A DNA stretch of 32,000 nt. It comes from Pyrobaculum aerophilum str. IM2 (GTDB lineage Archaea > Thermoproteota > Thermoprotei > Thermoproteales > Thermoproteaceae). The stretch lies in the NCBI RefSeq assembly GCF_000007225.1, contig NC_003364.1, positions 570,001 to 602,000 on the forward strand, given 5' to 3'. Of the stretch, positions 2,963-22,220 are shown in pieces. Position numbers and translations under genes: made by a program. Positions within the stretch are counted from its first letter, which is position 1. Each line of letters starts with the position of its first letter. The notes below the pieces were generated by a model. The model made no database searches. It saw nothing but the letters and a program-made list of their open reading frames with translations, and was not told where the DNA came from.

Positions 2963-4408
2963 GTGGTCACGCAGTACCTCTCCCGCCTCAGGACTCTAGA
3001 CAGGTACGTAGGCGATTACGACGTTGTAATAGTGGGGGCGGGCCCCGCGGGATTATTCGCCGCGCTTGAACTGGCCGAGGCGGGCGGGCTGAAAATAGCG
3101 TTAATAGACGGCGGGTATAGGGCGTCGCAGAGGCACTGCCCCCTTCAGACCCCCTTGGAGAAGTGTACATACTGCGTGCCGTGCCACATAATGTACGGCA
3201 TAGGCGGCGCCGGGACTCTCAGCTCGGGGCTTATTAACTTAAGGCCTGACGTCGGCGGTGATTTACACGAGCTAGTGGGCGACTGGGACAAGGCCATGGA
3301 GCTCATAAACTACATAGACTCTATATTTGTTAAATTCGGCGCGCCTGAACACGTATATGAGCCGAACATGGAGGCTATTAACAAGCTTTCGGCCCTCGCC
3401 GCCAGGGTGAACGCCAGGATTGTGCCAATAAGGCAGAGGCATATGGGCACAGACGGGAGCAGAAAAGTGGTGGAGGCCATGACGCAGTATTTAGAGGGCG
3501 CAGGGGTGGCGGTCATGTACGCCACGTGGGCCTTGGAGGTAGAGAGGGGAGAAAACGGGACGTTCACTGTGAAGACAACTCGCGGAGTATTAAACGCCAG
3601 GGCCGTCCTCCTCGCCCCGGGGAGGGGAGGGGCTGAGTGGCTTGTGTCCCAGCTTAAAAAACTGGGCGCCAGCCTGGACTTCGGCCCGGTGGATATAGGA
3701 GTGCGCGTTGAAGTGCCCTACCACGTAATGCGGCCGCTCACAGACGCAGTACACGACCCGAAGGTAATACTCTACACGTCAAAATACGACGACAAAGTGA
3801 GGACGTTTTGCACAAACCCCCGCGGCTTTGTGGTAAAAGAGGTATACTCAGACGGCACAATAGGCGTAAACGGCGAGACTTATCTAGAGAAGAAAAGTGA
3901 GAACACGAACTTCGCCTTTTTAGTCACTCTGAGGCTCACAGATCCCATGGAGGACACCATTGAGTTCGGAAAGTCCATTGCCAGACTCGCCACTAAGCTG
4001 GGCGGAGGGAAGCCCCTAATCCAAAGGCTTTACGACTTAGAAAGAGGCCAGAGATCCACTTGGGACCGCATCCGCCGCTCAAGCATATCGCCCACATTAA
4101 AAGACGTCACCCCCGGCGACATCTCCTTGGCCCTCCCCCACCGCATTGTGGAGGACATAATTGAGGGGCTGAAGAAGCTGGACGAACTGGCGCCCGGCGT
4201 GGCGAGTCCCCAGACGCTGATATACGCCCCCGAGATTAAATACTACTCGGCGAGGCCGACTGTAGACGCCCACTTAATGACCACAGTGCCCGGCCTCTTT
4301 GTCGCTGGAGACGGCGCCGGCCTCTCCAGAGGTATAAACGTAGCGGCGGCCACAGGCGTACTGGCGGCGCGGGGCATATTGAAATACCTCAGCTCGGCTG
4401 GGGCGTAG
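2963..4408 (+). CDS. FAD-dependent oxidoreductase, COG2509-like, with a Cys cluster insert
   Basis: It has the Rossmann fingerprint [20 protein letters not shown], a [16 protein letters not shown] four-Cys motif and a C-terminal [10 protein letters not shown]. The track ORF begins at TTG 2909. I prefer the in-frame GTG at 2963 because CTATATATAC (2932-2941) lies about 25 nt upstream. Confidence 0.8.
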
Positions 4409-4946
4409 GCCTAGCCCCCCTCCTCACCAGATAGCAGAAAGTGATATAATAGCCTATAAATAAAATTAAATAACGTATATAGTTAGCGGCAGTTCTTTCA
4501 GGGCTATCACCGTACGTGAATATGTAAACATCGGCGAGGACGTTGTAAGGCCAAGCTATTCCAAAGGCAGTGAGATTCGCGCCCACCAACCCGCCGAGCG
4601 CCTTCAAGACGCCCTTAAAACCCCCCACTGAATACGCCAGCCAGAAAGGCCTCACGATAAAATACCAAAACGCCGCAGGTAGCGCGGGAAACACAGCGAG
4701 TAGGGCAACCTCCGGCGTGCCAAAACTAGCCGCGTATAGAAAACCCCCGGCCAGAAGAGCAAAGCGGGGCGGCGGCCTAGATAGGCAAATATCAATAACC
4801 CACATCAACACAATGATATAAACACCCCACACCCTCAAGACAAAATGCACGCCGTGAGGAGGTGGAAATACCCCTATTAAGAGCAGGAGTACAAAACCGA
4901 TGAAAAAAGCAAGTATTATTTGAACTCTACGAAAAAGCCGCTCCAT
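4389..4946 (-). CDS. small polytopic membrane protein (185 aa), partner of the 795-aa surface protein (module A)
   Basis: Hydrophobic segments run throughout. The N-terminus MERLFRR and the C-terminal FIGYYI motif are shared with the 16648..17178 ORF. Its start overlaps the 3' end of the upstream gene by 31 nt. Confidence 0.6.
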
Positions 4947-7303
4947 GCCATTGCGTACGGCTCCTCAGGCCCATTAAAAATCCTGTACGCATCATCATGG
5001 TGCACTCTTAAGAACGTCAAATAGTAATAATACCCGGCCAGGTTTATGTCCACGTAGGTGCTGTAAGTCGCCTCGTGGTACATTATCCTCTCTGTAAGGG
5101 CAACTCCTCTAGTCTGCGGGGTGCCTACTCCACCAATGTAGATATGTGCAAAATCAATTTTCCCATAAGTGCCGGCGTTGTAGCCAGATGAAACGTAATA
5201 CGAAGAGGGAGAACACGTATACTCTTGTGGCGTTTGAACCGTTTTCAAGAGGCTGTCTATACCCCACACAGCTAGTGATCCAGCCACTATTAACGGGTTG
5301 GTATAAAATAGTGATATAAACGTCAAAATAGTACCGACTATATAAACAGCAGCATTTGTGGCAGAAACCAGCCAATTGATATCATATTTATAGGGATCTT
5401 GAATGTATATATCCATAGTTATTGGGCTTCCTACGTAGTTCACATTAGCACTGCCCACTACGGCCACGCAGACTTTTCTCAGTTCTACATTATTTCCCCA
5501 CTTAAGATAAGAGTACGTCAAGCGTCCATTGGGTGTAGTATATTCATAGCCCACAAACATCTGGGATGTGAGTCTGATGTCTGCATAGGCCAGTCTGGAT
5601 CGTAGGGTTATGGGGTCAACCGTCTCGTTGTATCTTGTGCTGGATAACCACACGGTGTACATGAAGATATCCCTTACGTGGCTGCCTCTGGAGACAGGAA
5701 CATCTGGAAAGACTGCTCTGCCACTTATCCAAGTCCTTGAGTTTTCGCGCCAGATCTCCGGCCATCTGTATCCCCAAAGGGATACTCTGAGGTTCTTTAA
5801 TTCGGCGGGAGTCCGTCCGCGAGTCACCGGGGGGTCGAAGACTAAATACAGCGGTAAGTAAGTAGTCGCGTTTGCGGCGTACCACCACTTGGCGGCGTCC
5901 TCAAGACGCACCCAGGCATAGGTACCGAAAGGACCATTGTCAAAAACGAACTCCCTACACCCGTCAAATGTGCCTACATACCGGCTTGATGTGAGCGTTG
6001 TGACTACTCTAGAACCGAGGATTACGGTGACGCTCTGGGTGTTGGTGTTTGTACATGTCTTCACCTTGAAGTTAGAAATCCACAGCCACGCATCCGCCGA
6101 GGCGCCTGGCGCAATACGCGCCACGAAGACGACGCTCTTTATAGGCTTAGAATAATCAAGTACTACCCCAAGCCAGCCGCCTGGCTGTACGAGATCCCAC
6201 CGCCAGTTAGCCCTGAGAAGCCCGTAGGCGCTGAGGGGATCCGCCGGCCTTCTGTATACAACCGTTATAGATATGTTGAGCGGCCTACCTGTTGAGAGGA
6301 TGTCAGTATACACCTCTATATAATAATTACTATATTGCGACACGTCAAATACATAGATCTTCCTGTATACATTTTCAAACCTGTACTCTAGCGGTGATTG
6401 ATACAGCCATACTGAGTTGGGTAGTTGCCCAGGCTGTGTGTAGTACCGCACATTTAGCCAAGCGTAAGGCCCAGGCTCGGGATCGCCCCGGCGCCAGGCG
6501 ACATGTACATATACCCTCTGCACGCCGTAACCTAAATACGCGTAGTGACTTTTCCAATCATCTTTACCGTAGAAAGTGTATTTTTTGCCGTCGAAGCCGT
6601 TTGCTATCCAGAAACGCGCCGCCGTAGACGCTGTATATATCTTAGAGTCAACTACATTCGCATGCACCAGCGGGGCGAAGAGGTAGCTCCCGTAGGCGTT
6701 AACAGTGGTGGAATTAGAGGCGTAATCCGTCGTGCCCGCCTCTCCGTTTGCCCGCGCGGGGGCCTTTTCTGGCTCTTTGAGCGGCTGGCGCCTTGGGGGT
6801 TGGTTTTTAGGCTCTCTTATATCCAGCGGCTTGTTCCCTATGTACAACTTCCCGTTTCTCTCCTCAGCAAATACCCAGAGCTCTAATCTCCCCGCAGTTT
6901 TTATGGCCTTACCTCTCGGCGTATTTATTATCTGAGACTCGCCCAGCTCTGTGGCGTTTCTGGGGAGGATTAGTCTCACTTTGCCGAGACCCTCCACTTC
7001 TAAATCAAAGGCTCTTGGGTGCCCTCTGGCGAAATTATTAAATGCTTTTCTGGGAACCGCGACGTATCTGCCGACGGGCACCGGCACAGTTATGTTAACC
7101 CCCTCCTCTGCGAAGTACGCCGTCTGGTTTACATAAATTTCAACTATAGGCACGGGCTCGATTTCCCTCCCTATTACAACGTAGGGGAATACATCCTCTT
7201 CCAGATCTACTTTTAGAAATACCACGTCCTCAATTCCGTAAGCCCACGCGTATATGACTAACAACACTGCGCCAAGCGCTATTAACGGGAGTTTAGGCAA
7301 CAT
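4916..7303 (-). CDS. large secreted/membrane-anchored surface protein, 795 aa, unknown family (module A)
   Basis: The long ORF has an N-terminal hydrophobic anchor (MLPKLPLIALGAVLLVIYAWAYG) and 7 N-x-S/T sequons. A Pro/charged linker (REPKNQPPRRQPLKEPEKAPARA) is present, along with a Tyr/Trp/Asn-rich body and hydrophobic helices near aa 655-700. TTAAAAAT lies about 24 nt upstream of the ATG. Confidence 0.75.
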   Translation of the reverse strand: MLPKLPLIALGAVLLVIYAWAYGIEDVVFLKVDLEEDVFPYVVIGREIEPVPIVEIYVNQTAYFAEEGVNITVPVPVGRYVAVPRKAFNNFARGHPRAFDLEVEGLGKVRLILPRNATELGESQIINTPRGKAIKTAGRLELWVFAEERNGKLYIGNKPLDIREPKNQPPRRQPLKEPEKAPARANGEAGTTDYASNSTTVNAYGSYLFAPLVHANVVDSKIYTASTAARFWIANGFDGKKYTFYGKDDWKSHYAYLGYGVQRVYVHVAWRRGDPEPGPYAWLNVRYYTQPGQLPNSVWLYQSPLEYRFENVYRKIYVFDVSQYSNYYIEVYTDILSTGRPLNISITVVYRRPADPLSAYGLLRANWRWDLVQPGGWLGVVLDYSKPIKSVVFVARIAPGASADAWLWISNFKVKTCTNTNTQSVTVILGSRVVTTLTSSRYVGTFDGCREFVFDNGPFGTYAWVRLEDAAKWWYAANATTYLPLYLVFDPPVTRGRTPAELKNLRVSLWGYRWPEIWRENSRTWISGRAVFPDVPVSRGSHVRDIFMYTVWLSSTRYNETVDPITLRSRLAYADIRLTSQMFVGYEYTTPNGRLTYSYLKWGNNVELRKVCVAVVGSANVNYVGSPITMDIYIQDPYKYDINWLVSATNAAVYIVGTILTFISLFYTNPLIVAGSLAVWGIDSLLKTVQTPQEYTCSPSSYYVSSGYNAGTYGKIDFAHIYIGGVGTPQTRGVALTERIMYHEATYSTYVDINLAGYYYYLTFLRVHHDDAYRIFNGPEEPYAMAWSGFFVEFK

Positions 7304-7373
7304 GCAAAAAAAACTGGTAATTTTTAAGTTTTACTTCAGTAAAGCCGTTAGCTGGAGTTCTGGCCGCTGTAAC

Positions 7374-7658
7374 CTACTTCATTCTCCTCTCCAGCTCTTT
7401 GCACACATCGCCTAGAGACAAGCCGAGGGAGTTTAGAAGGACTAGGAGGTGGTATAATAAGTCCGCCGATTCCTCAACAACTCTCTCCCTCCCCTCCGCC
7501 AGCGCCGCCACGGCCACCTCAACGGCCTCCTCCCCCACTTTACGCGCTATAGTGGAAACGCCCGAGGAATACAGGCGGTAGGTATAACTCTGGGGGTTTC
7601 CTTCGGCAATTCTCTGGCGGATTACGGCCTCCAGCTTTTCAAAAATTTGACAACTCAT
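7374..7658 (-). CDS. hisE: phosphoribosyl-ATP pyrophosphatase
   Basis: The 94-aa sequence SYTYRLYSSGVSTIARKVGEEAVEVAVAA...EESADLLYHLLVLL is the typical HisE/MazG-like signature. Its start overlaps the hisD stop by 4 nt. Confidence 0.85.
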   Translation of the reverse strand: MSCQIFEKLEAVIRQRIAEGNPQSYTYRLYSSGVSTIARKVGEEAVEVAVAALAEGRERVVEESADLLYHLLVLLNSLGLSLGDVCKELERRMK

Positions 7659-8761: not shown

Positions 8762-9519
8762 ATCCTAACCTCAACCCCCCTCTCTTTTAAATAGCGCTTT
8801 ACTTGCGCAATTGACAAAACGCGGAAGTGGAAAAGAGACGCGGCGAGAACTGCGTCGGCGCCCGCGGCTGCTGCCTCGTAAAAATGCTCCACCCGACCCG
8901 CGCCCCCGGACGCGATTACGGGAATTCTCACAGAGTCGGCCACCCGCCTAATAAGCTCCACGTCATATCCCAAGCCCGTCCCGTCTCGGTCAATTGACGT
9001 GAGGAGTATCTCCCCCGCGCCTAGCTCCTCAACTTCCTTCGCCCACTTCACTGCGTCAAGGCCCGTCGCCTCCCTCCCTCCCTTGACGTATACCTCGTAA
9101 TACTCCCCGTTCCACTTTGCGTCTATTGCCACCACGGTTGATTGACTGCCGAACTCTCTCGCCAACAGAGCCACTAGCTGGGGGTTGCGCACGGCAGCTG
9201 TGTTCACAGACACCTTGTCGGCGCCTGCCCTAAACAACGTCGTTGCGTCCTCGAGGCTCCTCACGCCGCCTCCCACTAACACAGGTATGGACACGGCCTC
9301 CGCAACTCTTTTCACAGAGTCTATAAACGTGGCGCGCCCCTCCGGCGCCGCGGTGATGTCTAGAATTGCTATCTCGTCGGCACCCTCCTCTTCATATCTC
9401 ACGGCCATTTCCACCGGATCCCCCACCTCTCTAATCCCCTGGAAATTAACCCCCTTGACCACTACGCCGGCTTTTCCGTCTATGTCGAGACACGGGATTA
9501 TCCTCAAGGCCACGTCCAC
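8758..9519 (-). CDS. hisF: imidazole glycerol phosphate synthase, cyclase subunit
   Basis: [50 protein letters not shown], followed by SGGAG, is a classic HisF barrel signature. The start is GTG 9519 or GTG 9513. Confidence 0.9.
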
Positions 9520-9576
9520 AAGTTAAAGCCTATATAAAGACTCTTCACACTTATATATCAGGGGGTTTATCGAAAT
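9520..9576. promoter_or_regulatory. divergent his promoter region with two TATA boxes
   Basis: TATATAAA (9531-9538) lies about 21 nt from the alternative hisF start at 9513. TTATATAT (9551-9558) lies about 22 nt from the hisB ATG at 9577. This spacing fits leaderless transcription in both directions. Confidence 0.5.
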
Positions 9577-10137
9577 ATGCCCTATGTGAGGAAGACGCTG
9601 GAGACAGAAGTGGCAGTGGAGCTGAGGCGAGGCGGCGACCTGGCGGTGGAGACCCCCATACCCTTTTTAACTCACATGTTAGAGACGCTTCTCAAATACG
9701 CCGGCTTAGGCGGCGTGGTTAAAGCCGTAGAGCTTAGGAAATTAGACGACGGACACCACGTCATTGAAGACGTAGCTATTGCAGTGGGGAGGGCGCTCGA
9801 CGCGCTTTTAGAAGACAGGCGGGGAATCGCGAGGTTCGGACACGCAGTTGTGCCCATGGACGAGAGCATAGTCATGGCCGCGGTGGATTTAGGCGGGAGG
9901 GCCTACTGGGTAGTAAGGGCGAAGTTGCCCGACGTGACTATCGGCGGGTACCCCCTCAGGATGTTCCCCCACTTCGTAAGAACGCTGGCAGTGGAGGCCA
10001 AGGCCACTATACACATATACGCCAGGGGGACAGATCCCCACCATAAAGTCGAGGCGGCCCACAAGGCGCTGGGCCTCGCGCTGAGACAAGCGCTCTCGCC
10101 GGGGGAGGGCTTGTCAACAAAGGGGGTGTTGGGATGA
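9577..10137 (+). CDS. hisB: imidazoleglycerol-phosphate dehydratase
   Basis: RKTLETEVAVEL...PFLTHMLETL...DDGHHVIEDVAIAVGRAL...DPHHKVEAAHKALG are IGPD signature blocks. Confidence 0.9.
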   Translation: MPYVRKTLETEVAVELRRGGDLAVETPIPFLTHMLETLLKYAGLGGVVKAVELRKLDDGHHVIEDVAIAVGRALDALLEDRRGIARFGHAVVPMDESIVMAAVDLGGRAYWVVRAKLPDVTIGGYPLRMFPHFVRTLAVEAKATIHIYARGTDPHHKVEAAHKALGLALRQALSPGEGLSTKGVLG

Positions 10138-10823
10138 TAATCCCCTCAATAGACATAGAGGGGGGAAGGGCCGTGAAGAGAATTAGGGGCCAGAGGGGCA
10201 ACTATATATTCCAGGGAGACCCCTTAGAGCTTGCCGCGCGGTTTCGAAAAGCCCCGCTAGTCCACGTGGTAGATCTCGACGGGGCTGAGGCAGGAGGGCT
10301 GGTGAATATAAGCGTGATAAGCAAAATAGCCGAAATCTTAGAGGGGCGGTGCGAGCTCGGCGGAGGGTTGAGGAGCCTCGAGGCCGTGGAGAGGGCCCTC
10401 TCGCTCTGCCAATACGCCGTTGTGGGCTCCCTGCCTTTTAAAAACTGGCCGCTCTTCCGCCGGGCGGCGGAGCTGTACAGAGACAGACTGGCCGTGTCTC
10501 TCGACTATAGGGGAGGCGAGGTGTTAGTGGGAGGGTGGAGGGAGAAGGCGGCATCAATAGCCGAGGCAGTTAGGCGCCTTGAAGAGGCCGGGCCGTACGC
10601 GGCGGTTATAGTCACCTCGGTGGAAGTGGAGGGAACAGGCGGCGGCGTTAAGGCGGATATCGACGTGAAGAGTCTAAAGAGAATAGCCAGGCGGGTTTTC
10701 TACGCGGGGGGCGTGAGGGATTGCAACGACGTGGAGAGGGCCTATGCGCTCGGCTTTGACGGCGTTATTGTGGGATACGCGCTGTACGCAGGGGATTTGA
10801 AAAAATGCGCAAATTGGTACTGA
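10134..10823 (+). CDS. hisA: ProFAR isomerase (HisA)
   Basis: IIPSIDIEGGRAVKRIRG, VVDLDGA and GGGLRS are HisA (beta/alpha)8 motifs. There is a 4-nt ATGA overlap with hisB. Confidence 0.85.
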   Translation: MIIPSIDIEGGRAVKRIRGQRGNYIFQGDPLELAARFRKAPLVHVVDLDGAEAGGLVNISVISKIAEILEGRCELGGGLRSLEAVERALSLCQYAVVGSLPFKNWPLFRRAAELYRDRLAVSLDYRGGEVLVGGWREKAASIAEAVRRLEEAGPYAAVIVTSVEVEGTGGGVKADIDVKSLKRIARRVFYAGGVRDCNDVERAYALGFDGVIVGYALYAGDLKKCANWY

Positions 10824-11286
10824 CCAAGGCCTTGGTCTACGGGCAAGCTCACTCGACGCGTCGACCAATAGGCGACGCCGAGTTTAAAGAGGGCTTGCAG
10901 AAAACGCCAGCGGGCAGGGAAAAACAAAGCGAAAACGCCCTTACAGTGACGGAGGCTGTCCTGAGGGAATTCGGCAAGCGTCACACCCGCCGATGAGGGA
11001 TTTGTTTAGGGCCTAGCTGGGCATATACAGAGAGCCGATCCAGTCCCCTGAGGGCGCTGAGGAGCAGGCGACCTTTTCCACCGCATCTGCATGCGGCGAT
11101 GACTTCAAAATGTCATTGTGAAATGCAAAAACGGCAGATCGCGGCGAGAAAGTGGTGTATTGAGATAGTAGCTATGGGCATAAAGCGGGGGCCTTGCCGA
11201 CAGCAGACGGCGGCTACTGAGGAGCGAATCCGCGTGGCGTTGCCCCAACTCTACGCGCGACCTGGTGGCACATCAGAAAGCCTTAA

Positions 11287-11724
11287 ATGATCTTTGTTGA
11301 CTATCTCGTGGGCCACGTCTTTGTGAAGGCGAGATTCGTGGGGGACAGAGGCGATAAAATTGCCGACGCCCTAATTGATACAGGCGCCACATACACAGTC
11401 ATACCGAGGCGCCTCGCCGAAGAGATCGGGGCGCCGCGCACCGGCATATACGCTGAAGTAAAGACCGCCTACGGCGTTGTCAAGCTCGAGCTCACCCACA
11501 TCTTGTTGGAAATTGAGGGCACAAGGGCGCTTGAGGCCGTCCTCGTGTCCGACAGTCTGGAAATACCCCTAATCGGCGTGAGGACGCTCGAAGGGCTTGG
11601 GTTTAGAGTAGACCCAACCACGGGTAAGCTTGAAAAAAGCCTGAGGAATTTCGGCCTCGCATATTCTATTACTATTCTCTCCCGGATAAGTTTTCGAATT
11701 GGGATTAGATACGTCTGTCTATAA
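11287..11724 (+). CDS. retropepsin-like (clan AA) aspartic protease
   Basis: ALIDTGATYTVIPRRLAEEIG carries the D-T-G-A active-site motif, and IPLIGVRTLEGLGFRVDP follows. An alternative leaderless start is GTG 11308, with CCTTAAATGA about 24 nt upstream. The ~30 C-terminal codons lie in low-GC DNA and may not be native. Confidence 0.7.
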   Translation: MIFVDYLVGHVFVKARFVGDRGDKIADALIDTGATYTVIPRRLAEEIGAPRTGIYAEVKTAYGVVKLELTHILLEIEGTRALEAVLVSDSLEIPLIGVRTLEGLGFRVDPTTGKLEKSLRNFGLAYSITILSRISFRIGIRYVCL

Positions 11725-12028
11725 GTATAGTAATCTCCCTTTCTAAGCGGACGGGATAATACAATATACATGAGATTGGGATTGGGCCTGCCAGCGCTTC
11801 CTTCAATTTCCAACCTCTCGCCACTAGGGCCTCCAGTCTCGGATGAAAAGCGCCCTCGGCAGTTTTATGAAAAACTTCCGCGTTTATGCGCGGCCTTTCG
11901 CAATCGCATAGAGCCTCAATTGTAAGCTCGTCTGTGCGTTTAATCGTATCCCAGTCGAGAAGAGAGACAAAAATATTGTGTCGCACATATTTAAATTTAC
12001 ACTCATTAATGCATTTGTCGATATCCAC
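11705..12028 (-). CDS. hypothetical 107-aa protein with CxxxC and CxC motifs (low-GC islet)
   Basis: The ORF lies 21 nt downstream of the 178-aa ORF on the same strand. It contains DKCINEC and LCDCE cysteine pairs. I recognise no family. Confidence 0.5.
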   Translation of the reverse strand: MDIDKCINECKFKYVRHNIFVSLLDWDTIKRTDELTIEALCDCERPRINAEVFHKTAEGAFHPRLEALVARGWKLKEALAGPIPISCILYYPVRLEREITILIDRRI

Positions 12029-12049
12029 TAGAATTAAGAATATAGAAAT

Positions 12050-12586
12050 TTATAAGCTTGATAGAACTTGACTAGTTACCAACTGGTTACTGTTCTTTAT
12101 TTTCACATCTTCTATTTTCCTTTTTCTACCTGCGTGCTCAAAAAGTATTTCCCCATCTTTTATCTCGTAGTTCACAGCCCCTATCCCAATTGCAAACGCT
12201 AGAAGATCGAGGCGCTCAAACCAATCCTCAGCGGGGTGACTGACTGTGAGATTGGGCAATAACATCTGGCCAGCGGCGACTGTGTAATACGCCTTCTCTC
12301 TCATGTCCCGCGCCTTATAAGCCCTCCTTATCAGCTCAGTCTGAATTTTGAGCTTGTCCTTAGTAGTCAGGTGCTCCGCCTCCAGGGCGATTCTCTTGGC
12401 GAACTCGATGCCATCCCCCAGCCTCTCCCCTCTATAAAATTCTTCAATCTCCTCTACAATGCGGTTGATATCAATTTTGTTCTTTTTAAAATCCCTATCC
12501 AACTTTTTAACTAGCCTATCGAGATCTGTCCTATCCATACGTGATTTTTCATCCCCGTGCAAAATACTACTTTTCGAGATTTTCAT
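12050..12586 (-). CDS. hypothetical 178-aa protein (low-GC islet)
   Basis: A clean ATG sits 26 nt downstream of TTATAAA on the minus strand. The N-terminal half is highly charged and helical-looking, and the C-terminal part is mixed. I recognise no family. Confidence 0.6.
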   Translation of the reverse strand: MKISKSSILHGDEKSRMDRTDLDRLVKKLDRDFKKNKIDINRIVEEIEEFYRGERLGDGIEFAKRIALEAEHLTTKDKLKIQTELIRRAYKARDMREKAYYTVAAGQMLLPNLTVSHPAEDWFERLDLLAFAIGIGAVNYEIKDGEILFEHAGRKRKIEDVKIKNSNQLVTSQVLSSL

Positions 12587-12736
12587 ATTATCATCAACAC
12601 AGGAGTTTATAACTCCTTCCCATTCGCAAAGCCGCCAATTTACTGATGGCAGAGTTTATAAACTTTTCCTCGCCTAGCAAAAAGAACCGAGCGGTGGTGA
12701 GATACAGTTTGACGCCTGAAGATGGGAGACGTCTCG

Positions 12737-12750
12737 AAAAAAATAAATGA
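12737..12750 (-). terminator. oligo-T terminator downstream of rtcB
   Basis: The minus strand reads TCATTTATTTTTTTCG beginning 8 nt after the rtcB stop. T7 runs are typical archaeal termination signals. Confidence 0.45.
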
Positions 12751-12757
12751 ATTACGC

Positions 12758-14212
12758 TTAACCCTTCACTACTCCGATGGGCCTCTGCCTCACCACCTTT
12801 TTCGCAAACCCCACTTGGTGCGCGGCCTCAACAACGCGATCGACGTCTTTATACGCCCAGGGCGCCTCTTCGCTTATGACCTCAGTCTCGGCGCTCCTCA
12901 CAATAATGCCCCTCTTGGCCATTTCCTCCTGCACCTTGTGAGGCGGGTACATCCGAATAGCCGCCTCTCTGCTGAGCACTCTCCCGGCCCCGTGCGGAGC
13001 TGTGCCGAATGTGAGCCTCATGGCGTCGTGCGTGCCTACGAGGATCCATGAGGCGGTGCCCATAGAGCCGGGGATTAGCACAGGCTGCCCCACTTCTCTA
13101 TATTTCGCGGGTATTTCCGACCTGCCGGGCGGGAACGCCCGCGTCGCCCCTTTGCGGTGCACCCACACTTTTCTCACAGTGCCCTTCTCGTCCACTACGT
13201 GCTCCTCCAATTTGGCGATGTTGTGAGCGACGTCGTAAACCACCTCCAGACCCACTTTCTCAATTGAGCCAAACACCTTTTTGAAAGCCTCCCTCACCCA
13301 GTGCATGATAATGTGGCGGTTAGTCCAAGCGAAGTTCGCGGCAGAGGCCATGGCCTTTATGTAGTCCTCGGCCACTTTATCCTTGAGCGGCGCGGCGGCC
13401 AGCTCTCTGTCCGGCAAGTTCAGCCCCCACTGCCTCATCTTCCTCTCCATTATCAAGAGGTAGTCAGTGGCCACTTGGTGGCCAAAGCCTCTGCTCCCCG
13501 TGTGTATCATCACGACCACTTGCCCCTCCCTCTCTATGCCGAATAGCTTTGCGATTTTCTCGTCGTATATTTTGTCCACTACTTGAATCTCTAAGAAGTG
13601 GTTGCCTGACCCCAGAGTGCCCAGCTGGTCCCTGCCCCTGGCCTTAGCCTTCTCGCTGACCTTTGAGGGATCCGCCAATTTCCACGACCCCCTCTCCTCT
13701 ATGTACTCCATGTCCTCAGCCCAGCCGTAGCCCTTCTGCACAGCCCACTCAACGCCCTCTGCAAGGACTCTCTCAAACTCAGAGGGAGACAGCCTCAAGT
13801 GGCCCGTGCCGCCGACGCCGGGCGGGACTAGTCTAAAGATCGTGTCCACAAGCTCCTTAAGCTTAGGCCTCACATCCTCCTCAGTGAGGTTCGTCCTCAG
13901 CACTCTCACGCCGCAGTTAATATCATAGCCAATGCCCCCCGGCGAAATGACGCCCTCTTCGGCGTCAATCGCGGCGACGCCGCCGATCGGAAAGCCATAT
14001 CCCTGGTGCGCGTCTGGGAGCACAATTGACCATCGGTATATGCCGGGGAGACAGCCGACGTTTATGCCTTGTTCCAGCGTCATGTCGCTTTTCATTTTCT
14101 CCAATAATACGCTGTCGGCGTAAATCCTGACAGGCACTTTTTGACACGGCTTTACGCCTGGGGGAATCTCCCATACATAGTCGTTAATTTTGTTAATAGG
14201 TATATTACGCAT
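12758..14212 (-). CDS. rtcB: RNA-splicing ligase RtcB
   Basis: GYDINCGVR, GSGNHFLE, HTGSRGFGHQ, PGSMGT and PHGAGR are all RtcB active-site blocks. The track ORF starts at GTG 14233. ATG 14212 (MRNIPINKINDYVWEIP) is preferred because CTTTTAAG is centred 24.5 nt upstream and the N-terminus then matches archaeal RtcB. Confidence 0.95.
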   Translation of the reverse strand: MRNIPINKINDYVWEIPPGVKPCQKVPVRIYADSVLLEKMKSDMTLEQGINVGCLPGIYRWSIVLPDAHQGYGFPIGGVAAIDAEEGVISPGGIGYDINCGVRVLRTNLTEEDVRPKLKELVDTIFRLVPPGVGGTGHLRLSPSEFERVLAEGVEWAVQKGYGWAEDMEYIEERGSWKLADPSKVSEKAKARGRDQLGTLGSGNHFLEIQVVDKIYDEKIAKLFGIEREGQVVVMIHTGSRGFGHQVATDYLLIMERKMRQWGLNLPDRELAAAPLKDKVAEDYIKAMASAANFAWTNRHIIMHWVREAFKKVFGSIEKVGLEVVYDVAHNIAKLEEHVVDEKGTVRKVWVHRKGATRAFPPGRSEIPAKYREVGQPVLIPGSMGTASWILVGTHDAMRLTFGTAPHGAGRVLSREAAIRMYPPHKVQEEMAKRGIIVRSAETEVISEEAPWAYKDVDRVVEAAHQVGFAKKVVRQRPIGVVKG

Positions 14213-14453
14213 GGCACCTAACAGATGTTCCACTTAAAAGCTTTATCTCACCGGCTACATTGGGCGCGACGCGGCTGATGAGCCCCCTCAATAACGCCCC
14301 TGGCCCTCCGCGGCGGCGGAGTAGTGATGGCCCTGTGAGCAGATGCGCTTAGAGGCCTTGAGATAACACGGTTAACTGCGCGTCCAAACGGCGCTGTAAC
14401 GCCTGTAGCGCCGCATATTTATTCAAGGAATAGCTTATAAATCATTCTTTCTT

Positions 14454-16655
14454 ATGATACGGGTGTTAATAGCAGTAATAGCGTTGTTGACAGTACTGCT
14501 CGCGGCCGGCCAGATCCCGCCAGGAAAGCCCCTTATATGTCTCAACGCCAGCGAGGCGGGGCTGGAGGGCTCGCCGCCGATGCTCGCGGGGTTTGTAGTT
14601 GGGAGAGGAGGACAGGAGCCGGTTCAGCTGTACGTCAACGGGACTGTTATTAACGTCGTCGGGATCTGGGACGCCAATTCCACCAAGCCGCAAATTCAGA
14701 ACATCACCGTGCTCCCGCCGGCGATTAAGGGGCTTATCTGCTTCCAGCCGGGGGATCCCGTCCCGGCTAGAGTGGCCAGAGGCCTTTATTTAGAGGTGGA
14801 GGCCCGGGGGAGGAGATACGGCGTGACGATAATAAACGCCAGCGACGACCCCGCCGCGCCTCCCGCCGTGCCTCTTGAGTACTTGCCGAGGGACGTCGAG
14901 GTGATTAGGGGCAGAGTAGTGGCTAAGAGGGAAGTGGGAGAGCGTGGAGGGTTCCCCGCCGGGCTGGGCCGCGTTGAGGTCATGCAGATGATTCAGCCGT
15001 CGCAGAGTTTATTCAGAGATTTCAGCGGCTTTATAATTGCCTCTTTTAAATTGAACTATACTGATAACTACGTCCTCAACCTATACGGCTCCAGTGAGGC
15101 CTGCACCAAGGGGAGGTTTATCCTTCCAAACGGCACGGGCTGGTTCACCCTGGCCTTCACCCCCGCCACGAGAGCCGACGTTTACGGCGGGGCCTCTTAC
15201 CTATACCTCACAATTCGGGCCAGTGTATACGACGCCGATACAGACAAGCCGCTTGCGAACATAACGCTGGGCAACATATACGTCCCCAACCAGCCGAGGC
15301 CGTGGCATTTAGTAACTATTGATTTAAGCCAGTGGACGGGTCTCACAAAGAGAATTGATTTGACCATCTGCAAGCCGTCGGGTGTTTACGTCTACGGTAA
15401 GTACGTCATAGACGCGGTTGTATACGCCGCGGTTCCCGCGAAGTCGTACGCAGAGCCCTTCGCCCTTGAGTCCCCGGGCAGAAACACATTGGTGAAGCCT
15501 CCCACAGGCTCTTCACAGCTCTTTAACGGCACTTATTTGGCAATCCCAGGCCTCACCCCTCCGCCGGGCTATGCCCTGGGAAGCGCCAGGGCGAGTATTG
15601 TAATTAGGACGTGCTCTCCCAGAGCCCCGTCCAGCGTCAACATCTACTGGGGCCCCTTCTACATCGGCACTGTGAGTAGAATACAAGTGGACGGCTGTTA
15701 TTACTACGTGGTGACGCCGGCGGACTTCAGAGGCGGCTTTGACGCCGCCGTCAGATCTAGCTTGTACCTCGGGGGCACGCTACACGCCGTATACATAGGG
15801 CCGTTTAATAACGACGTTTACAACACAGGCCTTAGAATTGACCAACTCAGAATAGAAGGCCTATACAGGCCCGAGATGAACGCCAGAGCCTCGCGAATAT
15901 TCAAAGACTACGCAACTAACTGGGGATATATGACGCTGTCGAGTTTTGTCACAGTATATACTTACAATCCTAATGTGCCTATCATAGCTTATGGGAGCAA
16001 AGTTGATATTAAATTTAGCGCACACGGCTTGTCGTACAGAACGCCTCGCCTCATAATCGCTGTTCAGAAGTATGACGGGATGGTTCATTGCGGCAGTATC
16101 AGCTTTGTGGTAAGGGCCTATTCCAACGGCCAGCCTGTAACGCTAGATCCCGACGGTACGGCTGGCGTATATCAACAAGGCGGTAATTCAGATCTTCTTT
16201 GGGTTGACCTTCTTGTGGACTTTATATCGAATTTATTGGACGAGGCGAAAAACGCCGTGTCGCAATTAGTATTAAAAGTCGTGAGCTGGGTCAGTTTTAC
16301 TATTGGCTTTGTACAAGCAGCCTCGTTTGTTGGCGTTGACAGGGTGAAGACGCAAGACGGAGGAGTTTCATACACTATTTCAATTGGGTCGCTAGCACCT
16401 GATGCAATTGTAATAGACGGGGCGACTTTCTCGCATAGTTTACCCAGCGATGCACCTATTGAGTTTAGAATTGAACGGATTCAGACGTCTTGCGCCGGTT
16501 TTACCCACTCCTTTGGCGACTACTCGATATATCTCGACCCGATGGCTAATTCCCTTAGTACTCAGTACATACACGCTTTCCGGACGTTTACGTGCGGAAA
16601 ACAGGAGATCGGTTGGCCTTCAATATCAGTATGTACCCCGTCGATTTATGGCTAG
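14454..16655 (+). CDS. large secreted/membrane-anchored surface protein, 733 aa, paralogous to 4916..7303 (module B)
   Basis: It has an N-terminal hydrophobic signal/anchor (MIRVLIAVIALLTVLLAAGQ), 9 N-x-S/T sequons and a Pro-rich linker (DDPAAPPAVPLEY). A hydrophobic stretch lies near aa 585-625. Three colinear N-terminal blocks are shared with the 795-aa protein: QLYVNGT/EIYVNQT, NITVLPP/NITVPVP and LEVEARGRRYGVTIINAS/LEVEGLGKVRLILPRNAT. Confidence 0.75.
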   Translation: MIRVLIAVIALLTVLLAAGQIPPGKPLICLNASEAGLEGSPPMLAGFVVGRGGQEPVQLYVNGTVINVVGIWDANSTKPQIQNITVLPPAIKGLICFQPGDPVPARVARGLYLEVEARGRRYGVTIINASDDPAAPPAVPLEYLPRDVEVIRGRVVAKREVGERGGFPAGLGRVEVMQMIQPSQSLFRDFSGFIIASFKLNYTDNYVLNLYGSSEACTKGRFILPNGTGWFTLAFTPATRADVYGGASYLYLTIRASVYDADTDKPLANITLGNIYVPNQPRPWHLVTIDLSQWTGLTKRIDLTICKPSGVYVYGKYVIDAVVYAAVPAKSYAEPFALESPGRNTLVKPPTGSSQLFNGTYLAIPGLTPPPGYALGSARASIVIRTCSPRAPSSVNIYWGPFYIGTVSRIQVDGCYYYVVTPADFRGGFDAAVRSSLYLGGTLHAVYIGPFNNDVYNTGLRIDQLRIEGLYRPEMNARASRIFKDYATNWGYMTLSSFVTVYTYNPNVPIIAYGSKVDIKFSAHGLSYRTPRLIIAVQKYDGMVHCGSISFVVRAYSNGQPVTLDPDGTAGVYQQGGNSDLLWVDLLVDFISNLLDEAKNAVSQLVLKVVSWVSFTIGFVQAASFVGVDRVKTQDGGVSYTISIGSLAPDAIVIDGATFSHSLPSDAPIEFRIERIQTSCAGFTHSFGDYSIYLDPMANSLSTQYIHAFRTFTCGKQEIGWPSISVCTPSIYG

Positions 16656-17178
16656 GCTTTTTAAATACCCCTTTTTCAGGATGGGCCTGGCCCTGGGGGT
16701 TATGTCTTTTTTCCACTTATTTCTATTTGGTTTTTTGAGGGAGGGCCTTTTACTTGCCGCCGTTGTGTCCTATTTCTCCGCCTACGGCGTGGCGTATAAC
16801 TGGCGCTGGGTTTTGCCGTGGGTTGGGGCTGTGGTTGCGGGGGTTTTTATCAGCGGGAGAATTGTGGTGGTTTTTGTATTTTTCCTTTACCTGGCCTTTA
16901 TGTTGGCAGTTCCCCTGTTTTTAACTAGGGGGGTGCGGAGCAGGGTAAAGTCGCTTTTCTTTTTCGTGCTTGGGCATTTCCTCTCAGGCGTCCCGCTTTT
17001 ATTAATTTCGCCGCTGTGGCGGTCTCTGGTCCCACACCCCTTTGAGTTCATCGCCTACGGCCCGGCCATCCCGACGCCTGTGGACTGGCCTTGGTACTTC
17101 GTGGGGTATTACGTTTGGGAGAGGGTCCACAGCTTGTATAAGGGGCTGCCGAGTGGCTTCACGCGGCCGGAGGGCTAG
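16648..17178 (+). CDS. small polytopic membrane protein (176 aa), partner of the 733-aa surface protein (module B)
   Basis: ATG 16648 overlaps the upstream stop by 8 nt. The track ORF's earlier start (16450) lies inside the 733-aa gene in another frame. The N-terminus MARLFKY and the C-terminal FVGYYV motif parallel the 185-aa ORF at 4389..4946. Confidence 0.65.
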   Translation: MARLFKYPFFRMGLALGVMSFFHLFLFGFLREGLLLAAVVSYFSAYGVAYNWRWVLPWVGAVVAGVFISGRIVVVFVFFLYLAFMLAVPLFLTRGVRSRVKSLFFFVLGHFLSGVPLLLISPLWRSLVPHPFEFIAYGPAIPTPVDWPWYFVGYYVWERVHSLYKGLPSGFTRPEG

Positions 17179-17318
17179 GCCGCCGGGTAAAGTTCTTAAA
17201 CCTCTGGGTAGGTGGCCTTGTGCCGGGACTACGCCGGGTGAGAGCGGCGTGTGCCGCCCTGTGAATCCGGCGGGGTGCCTTCCCCTCTAGTTTATATACC
17301 CCTAAATAGAATAATAGT

Positions 17319-17762
17319 ATGAGGGGGGCTGTGGTGAGTATTCAAGTGGCGGTTCTTTTAGTCTTTATCTTGGCAATAGCCGTGGCCTTGGCCGGCTATT
17401 TGTATACTACTTTTTATTCCTCTTTGCAGTATACCTATATTGCCCTTACCCAGGCGTATATATATCCCACGCCGTCGGGGGCTGAGGTAAAAATTTGTTT
17501 TTCCGTGGGGGGCTCCGGCGGACTGACAATAACGGGCGTGGAGCTGGACGGGAGACCAGCGGCGAGTTTTAAGGTATATGTGAGGGGGGCTGAGGCCGGC
17601 GAGGTGAGGGCGGGGGATGTGGGGTATATCAAGGCGGATTTCCCCGGCGTCGTTGTACGGCCGGGCTGGATGCCGACTGGGAGAGTGGTCACTAGACAGG
17701 GGTTTAGCTTTTTGTTCACGCCTTCTGTGTCCCAGGCCGAGGGGCGTTGTCCTGGCGAGTAG
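17319..17762 (+). CDS. archaeal type IV pilin-like protein with a class III signal peptide
   Basis: The N-terminus MRG|AVVSIQVAVLLVFILAIAVALAGYLY fits the prepilin-peptidase motif [KR]-G-[A]-[V] followed by a hydrophobic helix. The downstream LTITGVELDGRPA resembles the beta-domain of DUF1628-type pilins. TTTATATA is centred 24.5 nt upstream of the ATG. Confidence 0.6.
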   Translation: MRGAVVSIQVAVLLVFILAIAVALAGYLYTTFYSSLQYTYIALTQAYIYPTPSGAEVKICFSVGGSGGLTITGVELDGRPAASFKVYVRGAEAGEVRAGDVGYIKADFPGVVVRPGWMPTGRVVTRQGFSFLFTPSVSQAEGRCPGE

Positions 17763-21744: not shown

Positions 21745-22220
21745 GTTTCAATTCTTTTGTAGATTCTTCGAGGGAGGAGAGGAGTGGCAGATTACCACAA
21801 CACTTTGCGGTTTCAATTCTTTTGTAGATTCTTCTGTAAAACTGCCCCCGGCCCCGGCCTCCACAACATATACATTGTTTCAATTCTTTTGTAGATTCTT
21901 CGGTTATAGAAGCAAAAATAGTTGAAATACCGAGGATATGTTAGTTTCAATTCTTTTGTAGATTCTTCTTAGCGCTTGGCTGGAAGAAGAGTTAGAAGAA
22001 TTAAAGTTTCAATTCTTTTGTAGATTCTTCATAGGGCTATTACAGAGAATATCTGGAAGAAGCTTAGCAACAGTTTCAATTCTTTTGTAGATTCTTCTAT
22101 GGCTCTTCTTAAGTTATATTTTTGTAAAGAGAAAGTTTCAATTCTTTTGTAGATTCTTCCAGCAGAGGCATTCTATTGGGATAGCGTAAAACAATGTTTC
22201 AATTCTTTTGTAGATTCTTC
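21745..22220 (-). CRISPR. CRISPR array: 8 identical 25-nt repeats and 7 spacers (40, 42, 42, 37, 42, 37, 36 nt)
   Basis: The repeat GTTTCAATTCTTTTGTAGATTCTTC starts at 21745, 21810, 21877, 21944, 22006, 22073, 22135 and 22196. Its reverse complement GAAGAATCTACAAAAGAATTGAAAC ends in ATTGAAAC, the usual 8-nt crRNA 5' handle. An A/T-rich leader lies on the high-coordinate side, so the array is probably transcribed on the minus strand. Confidence 0.95.

Follow-up and report, generated by a model that had tools for sequence, protein, structure and literature searches.

A Thermoproteaceae-specific superfamily of two-gene putative envelope modules with mosaic hypervariability in Pyrobaculum aerophilum

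Introduction

Almost nothing is known about the host factors that decide virus adsorption or self/non-self recognition in hyperthermophilic Crenarchaeota. In Thermococcales, the hypervariable VARTIG module, centred on arCOG07710, has no counterpart in other archaea according to its authors; its function is unknown, and proposals include self/non-self recognition and conflict between microbes (Makarova et al. 2021, PMC8416519). In Saccharolobus solfataricus, the membrane-associated cell-surface complex Sso3139–3141 is a candidate secondary receptor of rudivirus SIRV2 (reviewed in PMC4456609). The S-layer of Pyrobaculum is formed by a single protein, PySLP (292 kDa), in which 19 Ig-like domains are combined with a basic tail and a C-terminal transmembrane helix of the protein's own (bioRxiv 10.64898/2026.08.21.746120). 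Here we describe two gene pairs, modules A and B, in a 32,000-nt stretch of the Pyrobaculum aerophilum str. IM2 chromosome (NC_003364.1, positions 570,001–602,000; hereafter the window, whose own coordinates are used throughout). Each pair encodes a large, putatively secreted protein (795 and 733 aa) and a small membrane protein (185 and 176 aa). They belong to a previously unannotated, Thermoproteaceae-specific superfamily of two-gene putative envelope modules with mosaic hypervariability.

Results

Two modules flanking the his cluster

Module A consists of a large gene of 795 aa (4916–7303, minus strand) and a small partner of 185 aa (4389–4946, minus strand) with ~5–6 hydrophobic segments in its hydropathy profile. 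Module B consists of a large gene of 733 aa (14454–16655, plus strand) and a small partner of 176 aa (16648–17178, plus strand), the latter opened by an ATG at 16648. ORF calling recovered all four open reading frames (ORFs) listed in a first-pass annotation of the window, together with the overlaps between small and large genes (31 nt in module A, 8 nt in module B) and the arrangement of the two modules, which point away from each other and flank the his cluster and rtcB. The same annotation had described a surface protein with a membrane partner, present twice, and the predicted features agree with this: a signal peptide, 7–9 N-glycosylation sequons, an all-beta ectodomain and an overlapping polytopic ORF. 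On the 5' side of its ATG, the 176-aa partner has a further 66 codons in frame without a stop (16450–17178, plus strand), overlapping the end of the 733 gene; this extension is not conserved as protein in relatives and is therefore probably untranslated. A search of the 32,000-nt window with hidden Markov models (HMMs) against sequence detected no further copy of either module.

Both large genes are mosaic in near-clonal backgrounds

Both large genes are mosaic recombination hot spots in near-clonal backgrounds, a feature that the first-pass annotation had missed. In another strain of P. aerophilum, a syntenic contig (L020) matches the window at 99.85% identity across 14.2 kb and shows 21 differences from it. 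Relative to this contig, a divergent-allele segment occupies 14240–15810 (plus strand), which takes in the spacer 5' of the 733 gene and that gene's codons 1 to ~452; identity is 68–94% in the segment and then ~100% through the rest of the 733 gene and its small partner. Synonymous divergence (dS) in the 733 gene is 0.29 in codons 1–452 and 0 in codons 453–733, with flanking genes at 0–0.009. Six of the 21 differences between the window and L020 fall in the 795 gene and all six are nonsynonymous, an excess that was not significant.

A second comparison, with a contig from a Pyrobaculum metagenome-assembled genome (MAG; L019), places the variable segment in module A. Here the contig agrees with the window at 100% identity through hisA, hisB, hisF, hisD and hisE and on into the 795 gene as far as codon ~166. 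At window position ~6805, the start of a Pro-rich linker, identity falls from 100% to ~80%, and from the linker onward it stays at 70–90% through the large and small genes to the contig end. The divergent-allele segment thus spans 4389–6805 (minus strand), that is, codons ~167–795 of the 795 gene plus the 185-aa gene, with dS of 0.49 in the large-gene segment, 0.31 in the 185-aa gene and 0 upstream.

The ratio of nonsynonymous to synonymous divergence (dN/dS) is ~0.3 in the divergent segments, with no stretch of them above 0.63. Both genes of the pair are thus under purifying selection, and at this ratio we take the divergent alleles to be functional genes brought in by recombination, not decaying ones. 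Among 733-gene variants from independent assemblies (including P0041, P0044 and P0006), at least four mosaic alleles can be told apart; they are built from three parental types, and their breakpoints lie close to residues 115 and 440–480. With a denoting the window type and b and c divergent parental types, the four alleles read a, b+a, a+b+a and b+c. Because the mosaics recur in independent assemblies and the b+a allele carries RefSeq WP_ accessions, assembly chimeras are unlikely to be their sole cause. In L019 the C-terminal part of the large protein has diverged along with the small partner, and in L020 both remain identical to the window. This co-inheritance would fit contact between the two, though linkage alone would give the same pattern.

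Restricted distribution and conserved pairing

Both families are restricted to Pyrobaculum and Thermoproteus. A hypothetical protein of P. aerophilum matches the 795-aa protein at 99% identity, and the family of the latter amounted to four homologue clusters in 5.8 billion proteins and eight in 1.8 billion proteins. Pairing was scored in all loci with sequence extending beyond the large gene, drawn from 795-family loci of Pyrobaculum and Thermoproteus (L001, L004–L011, L019–L023) and from 733-family loci (L002, L003, L012–L014, L016–L018). A hydrophobic ORF of ~160–225 aa lies directly 3' of the large gene in every one of these ~20 loci of both families, overlapping it in most, and no orphan partner genes were seen in the loci examined.

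There are at least three divergent subfamilies, with several copies per genome that are often clustered. Three modules are packed into 11 kb of P. oguniense DNA, one of 717+186 aa, one of 773+198 aa and one with a 733-type gene; the 717+186-aa module (L007, 3269–5969, plus strand) lies directly 5' of the 795-type module, and the 733-type gene follows 3 kb further on. We assign the 717-aa protein to a third subfamily because it matches the 795 profile with 86% probability (E 5e-6). Two modules stand in tandem in L013. Genomic context differs between species, while module A is syntenic beside the his operon in all three P. aerophilum-like contigs examined. All-against-all BLAST of the ORFs of L001–L018 revealed no conserved neighbours beyond the pair itself and extra module copies.

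Two further observations concern the surroundings of these loci. PaREP1-family genes occur within a few kb of modules (L020, 14597–15082 and 17402–17881; L022, 6601–7041; L024, 5857–6312); as such genes are abundant in Pyrobaculum, the proximity may be coincidence. In a Pyrobaculum MAG (L001), an ORF of >2,400 aa without a Pfam match (9295–13968, plus strand) lies ~0.8 kb 3' of a 795-family module. Judged by size, it could be a PySLP-type S-layer protein, a type described as having ~2,000–2,700 aa, tandem Ig-like domains, a transmembrane helix at the C-terminal end and a Lys-terminated basic tail.

Remote homology of the large proteins

The first-pass annotation had called the two large proteins paralogous on the strength of three N-terminal blocks matched by eye. 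Pairwise tests taken by themselves were marginal. BLASTP aligned the two mid-protein with an E-value of 0.057. In full-length Smith–Waterman alignment the pair scored above shuffled sequences (z = 6.1, 0/300 shuffles reaching the real score), the signal coming from residues 410–631 of the 795-aa protein versus 380–565 of the 733-aa protein. The N-terminal residues 1–170 gave z = −0.55 against 300 shuffles, which is not significant. An HMM-versus-sequence search within the window yielded E ~0.15 between the families, the 795-family profile, run exhaustively with HMMER against 1.8 billion representatives, retrieved eight clusters, none from the 733 family, and hhalign with shallow profiles (5 versus 11 sequences) gave 3% probability.

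The relationship is detected by HMM–HMM comparison only. With divergent members added to the profile, the N-terminal hhalign probability rose to 66% (E 5.5e-5). Deep profiles (14 versus 13–14 sequences, including members of 25–28% identity from genomes and metagenomes) gave 94.4% in local mode (E 8.8e-8) and 97% in global mode (E 2e-10), and hhalign with the tool's own alignments gave 95.7% (E 8.5e-9). The alignment is colinear over ~580–650 columns (residues 9–687 versus 4–637) at ~17% identity; it superposes the hallmark motif G-x-R-W-P-E-I-W of the 795 family on G-L-Y-R-P-E-M-N of the 733 family, and likewise a TC...V-x-IY-x-G...GC motif. A reversed control gave E 0.44, the best of 60 column or block shuffles scored 27.8 against 72.6 for the real alignment (73–81 over the real runs overall), and the best E-value of any reversed or shuffled control was 0.04.

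Given the high deep profile–profile scores and clean controls, the alignments identify the 795-aa and 733-aa proteins as remote homologues, not recent paralogues. The paralogy claim survives in this form only, at ~17% identity and through profile–profile comparison, since the blocks picked by eye do not suffice by themselves: hhalign recovered two of them (YVNxT and LEVE-G-x-G), the NITV block was ~8 residues off, and none of this was significant in pairwise alignment.

Small partners of similar build

A relationship between the small partners, read from similar N-terminal starts and a shared F(I/V)GYY(I/V) motif, was not upheld. The 185-aa and 176-aa proteins scored no better than shuffles in Smith–Waterman alignment (z = −0.45), BLASTP gave E 0.9, and profile–profile comparison of the two families (8 versus 7 sequences) gave 0.1% probability (E 0.53). 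The proposed motifs are not conserved within their own families, and most 795-family partners lack F(I/V)GYY(I/V). The two partner families are alike in size, position, overlap with the large gene, a basic N-terminal tail and ~5–6 hydrophobic segments in a polytopic layout.

Within each family, conservation is clear. Codon-level conservation, whose absence from the small ORFs would have counted against the first-pass view, was found for the 185-aa ORF, which has a dN/dS of 0.14 against L019 and is under purifying selection; the protein also matches a partner (E 2e-4) whose large gene is only 29% identical. The 176-aa ORF shares 61% identity with a P. arsenaticum partner. Because of the low dN/dS of the 185-aa ORF and the matching partners of both in relatives, the comparative evidence identifies the two small ORFs as real genes. 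Homologues of the 185-aa partner (family alignment A4) were found only in Pyrobaculum and Thermoproteus. We also considered an archaeosortase or exosortase, defined by a match to an NCBIfam or Pfam sortase model and a conserved Cys-Arg-His triad, and rejected it: there was no NCBIfam or Pfam match, and no Cys is found among the invariant residues of A4 or of A5, the alignment of the 176-aa partner family.

Predicted architecture of the large subunit

The AlphaFold2 (AF2) model of the 795-aa protein (predicted local distance difference test score, pLDDT, 56; predicted template modelling score, pTM, 0.65) is all-beta from residue 25 to 635, and that of the 733-aa protein, although poor (pLDDT 48), has the same order of elements. 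A putative signal peptide occupies residues ~1–22 of the 795-aa protein (MLPKLPLIALGAVLLVIYAWA/YG; 7238–7303, minus strand), with a hydrophobic segment at 1–25 and a model helix at 5–21, the likely cleavage site being placed by an A-x-A motif. It is followed by a predicted N-terminal beta domain (residues 25–160; 6824–7231, minus strand; pLDDT 70–86), which is common to the 733 family (hhalign E 5.5e-5), is among the most conserved stretches of both families and is 100% identical in L019 as far as window position ~6805. The Pro-rich, low-complexity linker behind it (residues ~163–203; 6695–6817, minus strand), already noted in the first pass, is seen directly in the sequence and has pLDDT <50 at 171–203.

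Residues 204–635 (5399–6694, minus strand) form, by model secondary structure, a beta-sandwich, jelly-roll-like ectodomain with conserved cysteine pairs (Cys417/Cys449 and Cys612/Cys697), for which Foldseek returned generic jelly-roll matches only (TM-score ≤0.24). The hallmark motif G-Y-R-W-P-E-I-W lies at residues 511–518 (5750–5773, minus strand), aligned with G-L-Y-R-P-E-M-N of the 733 family; G511, R513, W514, P515, I517 and W518 are invariant. Next comes a predicted hydrophobic or amphipathic helical hairpin (residues 640–688; 5240–5386, minus strand; model helices 640–666 and 673–688, hydropathy peaks 645–677), matched at 581–602 and 612–623 in the 733 model, which may serve as a membrane anchor or as a docking element for the small partner. 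The C-terminal region (residues 689–795; 4919–5239, minus strand; pLDDT <50) ends in F-x-G-P-x-E-P-Y ... W, with F776, E781, P782 and Y783 invariant or nearly so, and the distance from hairpin to C-terminus is ~105 residues in the 795-aa protein and 110–150 in the 733-aa protein. The large proteins carry 7 and 9 N-glycosylation sequons (N-x-S/T), plus the paired conserved cysteines.

Foldseek searches of both AF2 models against PDB and BFVD produced generic jelly-roll, Ig, CUB and carbohydrate-binding module (CBM) matches with TM-scores ≤0.38, including birnavirus VP2, xylanase J with its CBM, BcsB, PrgB Ig domains, reelin and phage tail fibres. The folds matched were solely multi-beta-sandwich ones of the adhesin, receptor, capsid or tail-fibre kind, and none was accepted as a homologue.

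Database searches and base composition

Searches of Pfam, NCBIfam, PHROGs, PADLOC and PDB sequences returned nothing usable for the four proteins or the family profiles, with no Pfam family in the module proteins at E-values up to 1. No relatives of the modules were found among GenBank phages, PLSDB plasmids or IMG/VR contigs, and no integrase, attachment-site tRNA or viral genes were found near the module loci.

The large genes had been described as richer in A/T, possibly through foreign origin. This applies to module A, whose GC contents at third codon positions (GC3; 0.54 and 0.52) are the lowest among the long genes of the window (others 0.61–0.72), only a short 178-aa ORF being lower (0.51). 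It does not apply to module B, whose GC3 is ordinary (0.61 and 0.67), and the codon-usage distance of the modules is unremarkable. Foreign origin as a mobile element thus finds no backing in the virus, plasmid and PHROGs searches or in codon usage, whereas recombination between lineages is evident from the imported alleles and the low GC3 of module A.

Neighbouring genes and other elements

Between the modules lie hisE, hisD, hisF, hisB, hisA, a gag-type aspartyl-protease-like ORF, an ORF of 178 aa without assigned function and rtcB; another neighbour in the window encodes an FAD oxidoreductase. The apparent 350-nt gap between hisD and the 795 gene is mostly occupied by hisE (PRA-PH, 94 aa; 7374–7658, minus strand), which falls below the 100-aa ORF cut-off. 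A 70-nt spacer separates hisE from module A, which lies 3' of it in the same orientation, a placement shared by contigs L019 and L020. In this spacer, 16–27 nt 5' of the 795-gene ATG, a TATA-like box can be read (AACTTAAAAATT; 7319–7330, minus strand), a candidate promoter of the module's own for a leaderless or short-leader mRNA.

The protease-like ORF (11287–11724) and the 178-aa ORF (12050–12586) form a low-GC island (11287–12586, GC 0.44–0.52). Differences between the window and L020 cluster at 11470–11514, and the protease-like gene shows four amino-acid changes in 138 aligned codons with a dS of 0.

Near module B, a Pyrobac-1 small RNA (sRNA; Rfam RF01722, 68 bits versus a gathering threshold of 40) lies at 17219–17280 (plus strand), 40 nt past the stop codon of the 176-aa gene, and had no counterpart beside the modules in 11 other loci. 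A 147-aa ORF (17319–17762, plus strand) begins MRGAVVSIQVAVLLVFILAIAVALAGYLY, has a TATA-like TTTATATA upstream, and its start resembles the class III (type IV pilin-like) signal peptides of archaea; it had no Pfam match and no homologue beside modules in other loci. A small clustered regularly interspaced short palindromic repeat (CRISPR) array at 21745–22220, with eight copies of the 25-nt repeat GTTTCAATTCTTTTGTAGATTCTTC and spacers of ~40 nt, sits in an AT-rich stretch (GC 0.42) without long ORFs and received no Rfam call at the gathering threshold.

Discussion

We tentatively read each module as a two-subunit envelope complex specific to Thermoproteaceae, in which the large subunit would provide a strain-variable recognition surface. 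This appears to be the best reading because the large protein is predicted to be exported, glycosylated and beta-rich, its partner is polytopic, the modules are multi-copy and lineage-specific, and their alleles are reshuffled in clonal backgrounds. From these features we infer export, glycosylation, subunit interaction and a recognition function. The large subunit would leave the cell by way of its Sec signal peptide and would probably be N-glycosylated, its N-terminal beta domain, Pro-rich linker, jelly-roll or beta-sandwich domains, hydrophobic hairpin and short C-terminal domain following one another in that order. The small polytopic protein, presumably made from the same mRNA by translational coupling through the overlapping stop and start, would act as a membrane-embedded anchor or assembly partner and probably touches the hairpin and the C-terminal part, which are inherited together with it. 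The exposed ectodomain may then form the recognition surface, as a virus receptor or decoy or as a cell–cell (self/non-self) adhesin, with alleles kept diverse in the population through frequency-dependent selection and reshuffled by inter-strain homologous recombination at conserved motifs. By analogy with described systems, these two roles, virus receptor or decoy and cell–cell recognition, seem the most likely.

Several points weigh against a recognition complex. No annotation points to the localisation or function of the modules, the structural models are of low-to-moderate confidence (pLDDT 56 and 48) with fold-match TM-scores ≤0.38, and the 733-family hairpin is amphipathic, not clearly transmembrane. 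L019, as a metagenome-assembled contig, may be a chimera of strains, and the flank comparison spans only 14–22 kb. The overall dN/dS of ~0.3 carries no direct signal of positive selection, and the localised import of divergent alleles could be neutral.

The low dN/dS would also suit an ordinary lineage-specific envelope complex with a structural, enzymatic or transport task and no part in recognition, its mosaics reflecting relaxed constraint and incidental recombination. Speaking for this alternative are the lack of any value above 0.63 along the divergent segments, the strongly conserved motifs that could be functional sites (GxRWPEIW / GLYRPEMN, TC...GC and the C-terminal motifs) and the weak jelly-roll matches to GH11 xylanase with CBM and to BcsB. 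We nevertheless hold it to be rather unlikely: divergence is sharply limited to module genes in two independent strain pairs whose flanks have dS ~0, the number of copies, their clustering and the divergence between subfamilies are what diversifying surface families typically show, and Pfam, NCBIfam and PDB sequences yielded no match. A polymorphic toxin (archaeocin) with its membrane immunity protein, the hairpin inserting into the membranes of competitors and the small protein protecting the producer, would account for the secreted large protein and tightly coupled ~180-aa polytopic protein in every locus, for the hydrophobic or amphipathic nature of the hairpin, for multiple and variable copies, and for the variable part in L019, which takes in the C-terminus and the downstream gene. 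The variable segments are, however, homologous alleles and not unrelated toxin cassettes, and the 733 gene varies in its N-terminal two thirds while its C-terminus and the partner gene do not change. Partner genes were never seen on their own and no toxin, immunity or PADLOC model matched, all of which leaves this explanation improbable.

The two modules might, on the other hand, be unrelated and alike in size, composition and membrane partner through convergence, as could be suspected from the pairwise BLASTP value of 0.057, N-terminal blocks no better than shuffles, the failure of the 795-family HMM to retrieve the 733 family and the lack of detectable homology between the small partners. 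Against colinear HMM–HMM matches at 94–97% over ~580–650 columns with hallmark motifs aligned, controls scoring ≤28 versus 73–81, and a third family (717 aa) that bridges to the 795 family at 86%, we give convergence very little credence. Equally hard to sustain is the idea that the modules were left behind by an integrated virus or mobile element and encode an envelope glycoprotein. The low GC3 of module A, viral jelly-roll capsid proteins as top Foldseek matches and a genomic context that varies by species speak for it; but the capsid fold matches have TM-scores ≤0.24, no relatives appeared in IMG/VR, GenBank phages, plasmids or PHROGs, neither integrase, attachment-site tRNA nor other viral genes lie nearby, and module A is syntenic beside the his operon in three P. 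aerophilum-like contigs.

The modules offer a compact, testable and hitherto unannotated two-gene unit with a clear population-genetic signature (flank dS ~0 versus segment dS 0.3–0.5), and are candidates for receptor or recognition studies with Pyrobaculum viruses, PFV, PSV and TTV among them. They also define a new protein superfamily for structural work, and they indicate that the first S-layer model of Pyrobaculum leaves some large surface proteins unaccounted for.

The S-layers built from SlaA/SlaB and from PySLP resemble the modules in combining a large exported beta-rich glycoprotein with a dedicated membrane anchor in the same cell envelope. SlaA/SlaB differ in their coiled-coil stalk partner, the modules having a polytopic partner and multiple copies. 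We considered an S-layer protein identity and rejected it: at 733–795 aa, without Ig families and with a hairpin ~105–150 residues before the C-terminus, the large proteins are set apart in architecture from PySLP as described in the literature, no direct sequence comparison with it having been made. Since the Pyrobaculum S-layer is an unrelated 292-kDa Ig-rich protein, they would be envelope proteins additional to it. Sso3139–3141 is comparable in its proposed role, which for the modules is drawn from variability alone, and belongs to another organism facing other viruses.

Bacterial systems provide further parallels. Immunity proteins of pore-forming colicins have 3–4 transmembrane helices, and polymorphic toxin or contact-dependent inhibition (CDI) pairs and colicin–immunity pairs share with the modules a large secreted protein followed by a small cognate one, intragenic breakpoints and allelic diversity between strains. 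Polymorphic toxins differ in exchanging unrelated C-terminal cassettes, each accompanied by its cognate immunity gene, whereas the modules exchange homologous alleles, can vary at the N-terminus and match no toxin or immunity domain. Myxococcus TraA/TraB is a polymorphic kin-recognition receptor with a variable domain and a co-operonic partner, in which allele identity decides which cells interact; the modules likewise pair a variable putative surface protein with a co-operonic partner, although TraA/TraB is bacterial and resides in the outer membrane, and no sequence relation is expected.

VARTIG resembles the modules in being archaeal and lineage-restricted and in centring on a large secreted protein of several beta domains, encoded at a fixed place in the chromosome and made hypervariable over part of its length by recombination between strains or species. 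No sequence relationship between the two was detected, and VARTIG belongs to Thermococcales rather than Thermoproteaceae. Its protein has Ig/CARDB domains and a C-terminal sorting signal, whereas the large proteins here match no Pfam family and end in a hairpin and a ~105-aa domain. Hypervariability in VARTIG lies in the C-terminal Ig domain, here in residues 1–452 (733 aa) or in residues 167–795 plus partner (795 aa); and variable downstream gene sets in VARTIG are replaced here by one fixed polytopic partner. Possibly, though we would regard this fuller picture as doubtful, Thermoproteaceae have a polymorphic, multi-copy surface recognition system of their own, whose alleles, put together from interchangeable segments through recombination between strains, would set virus adsorption or cell recognition (aggregation, DNA exchange), making the modules a crenarchaeal counterpart of VARTIG built on an unrelated fold family.

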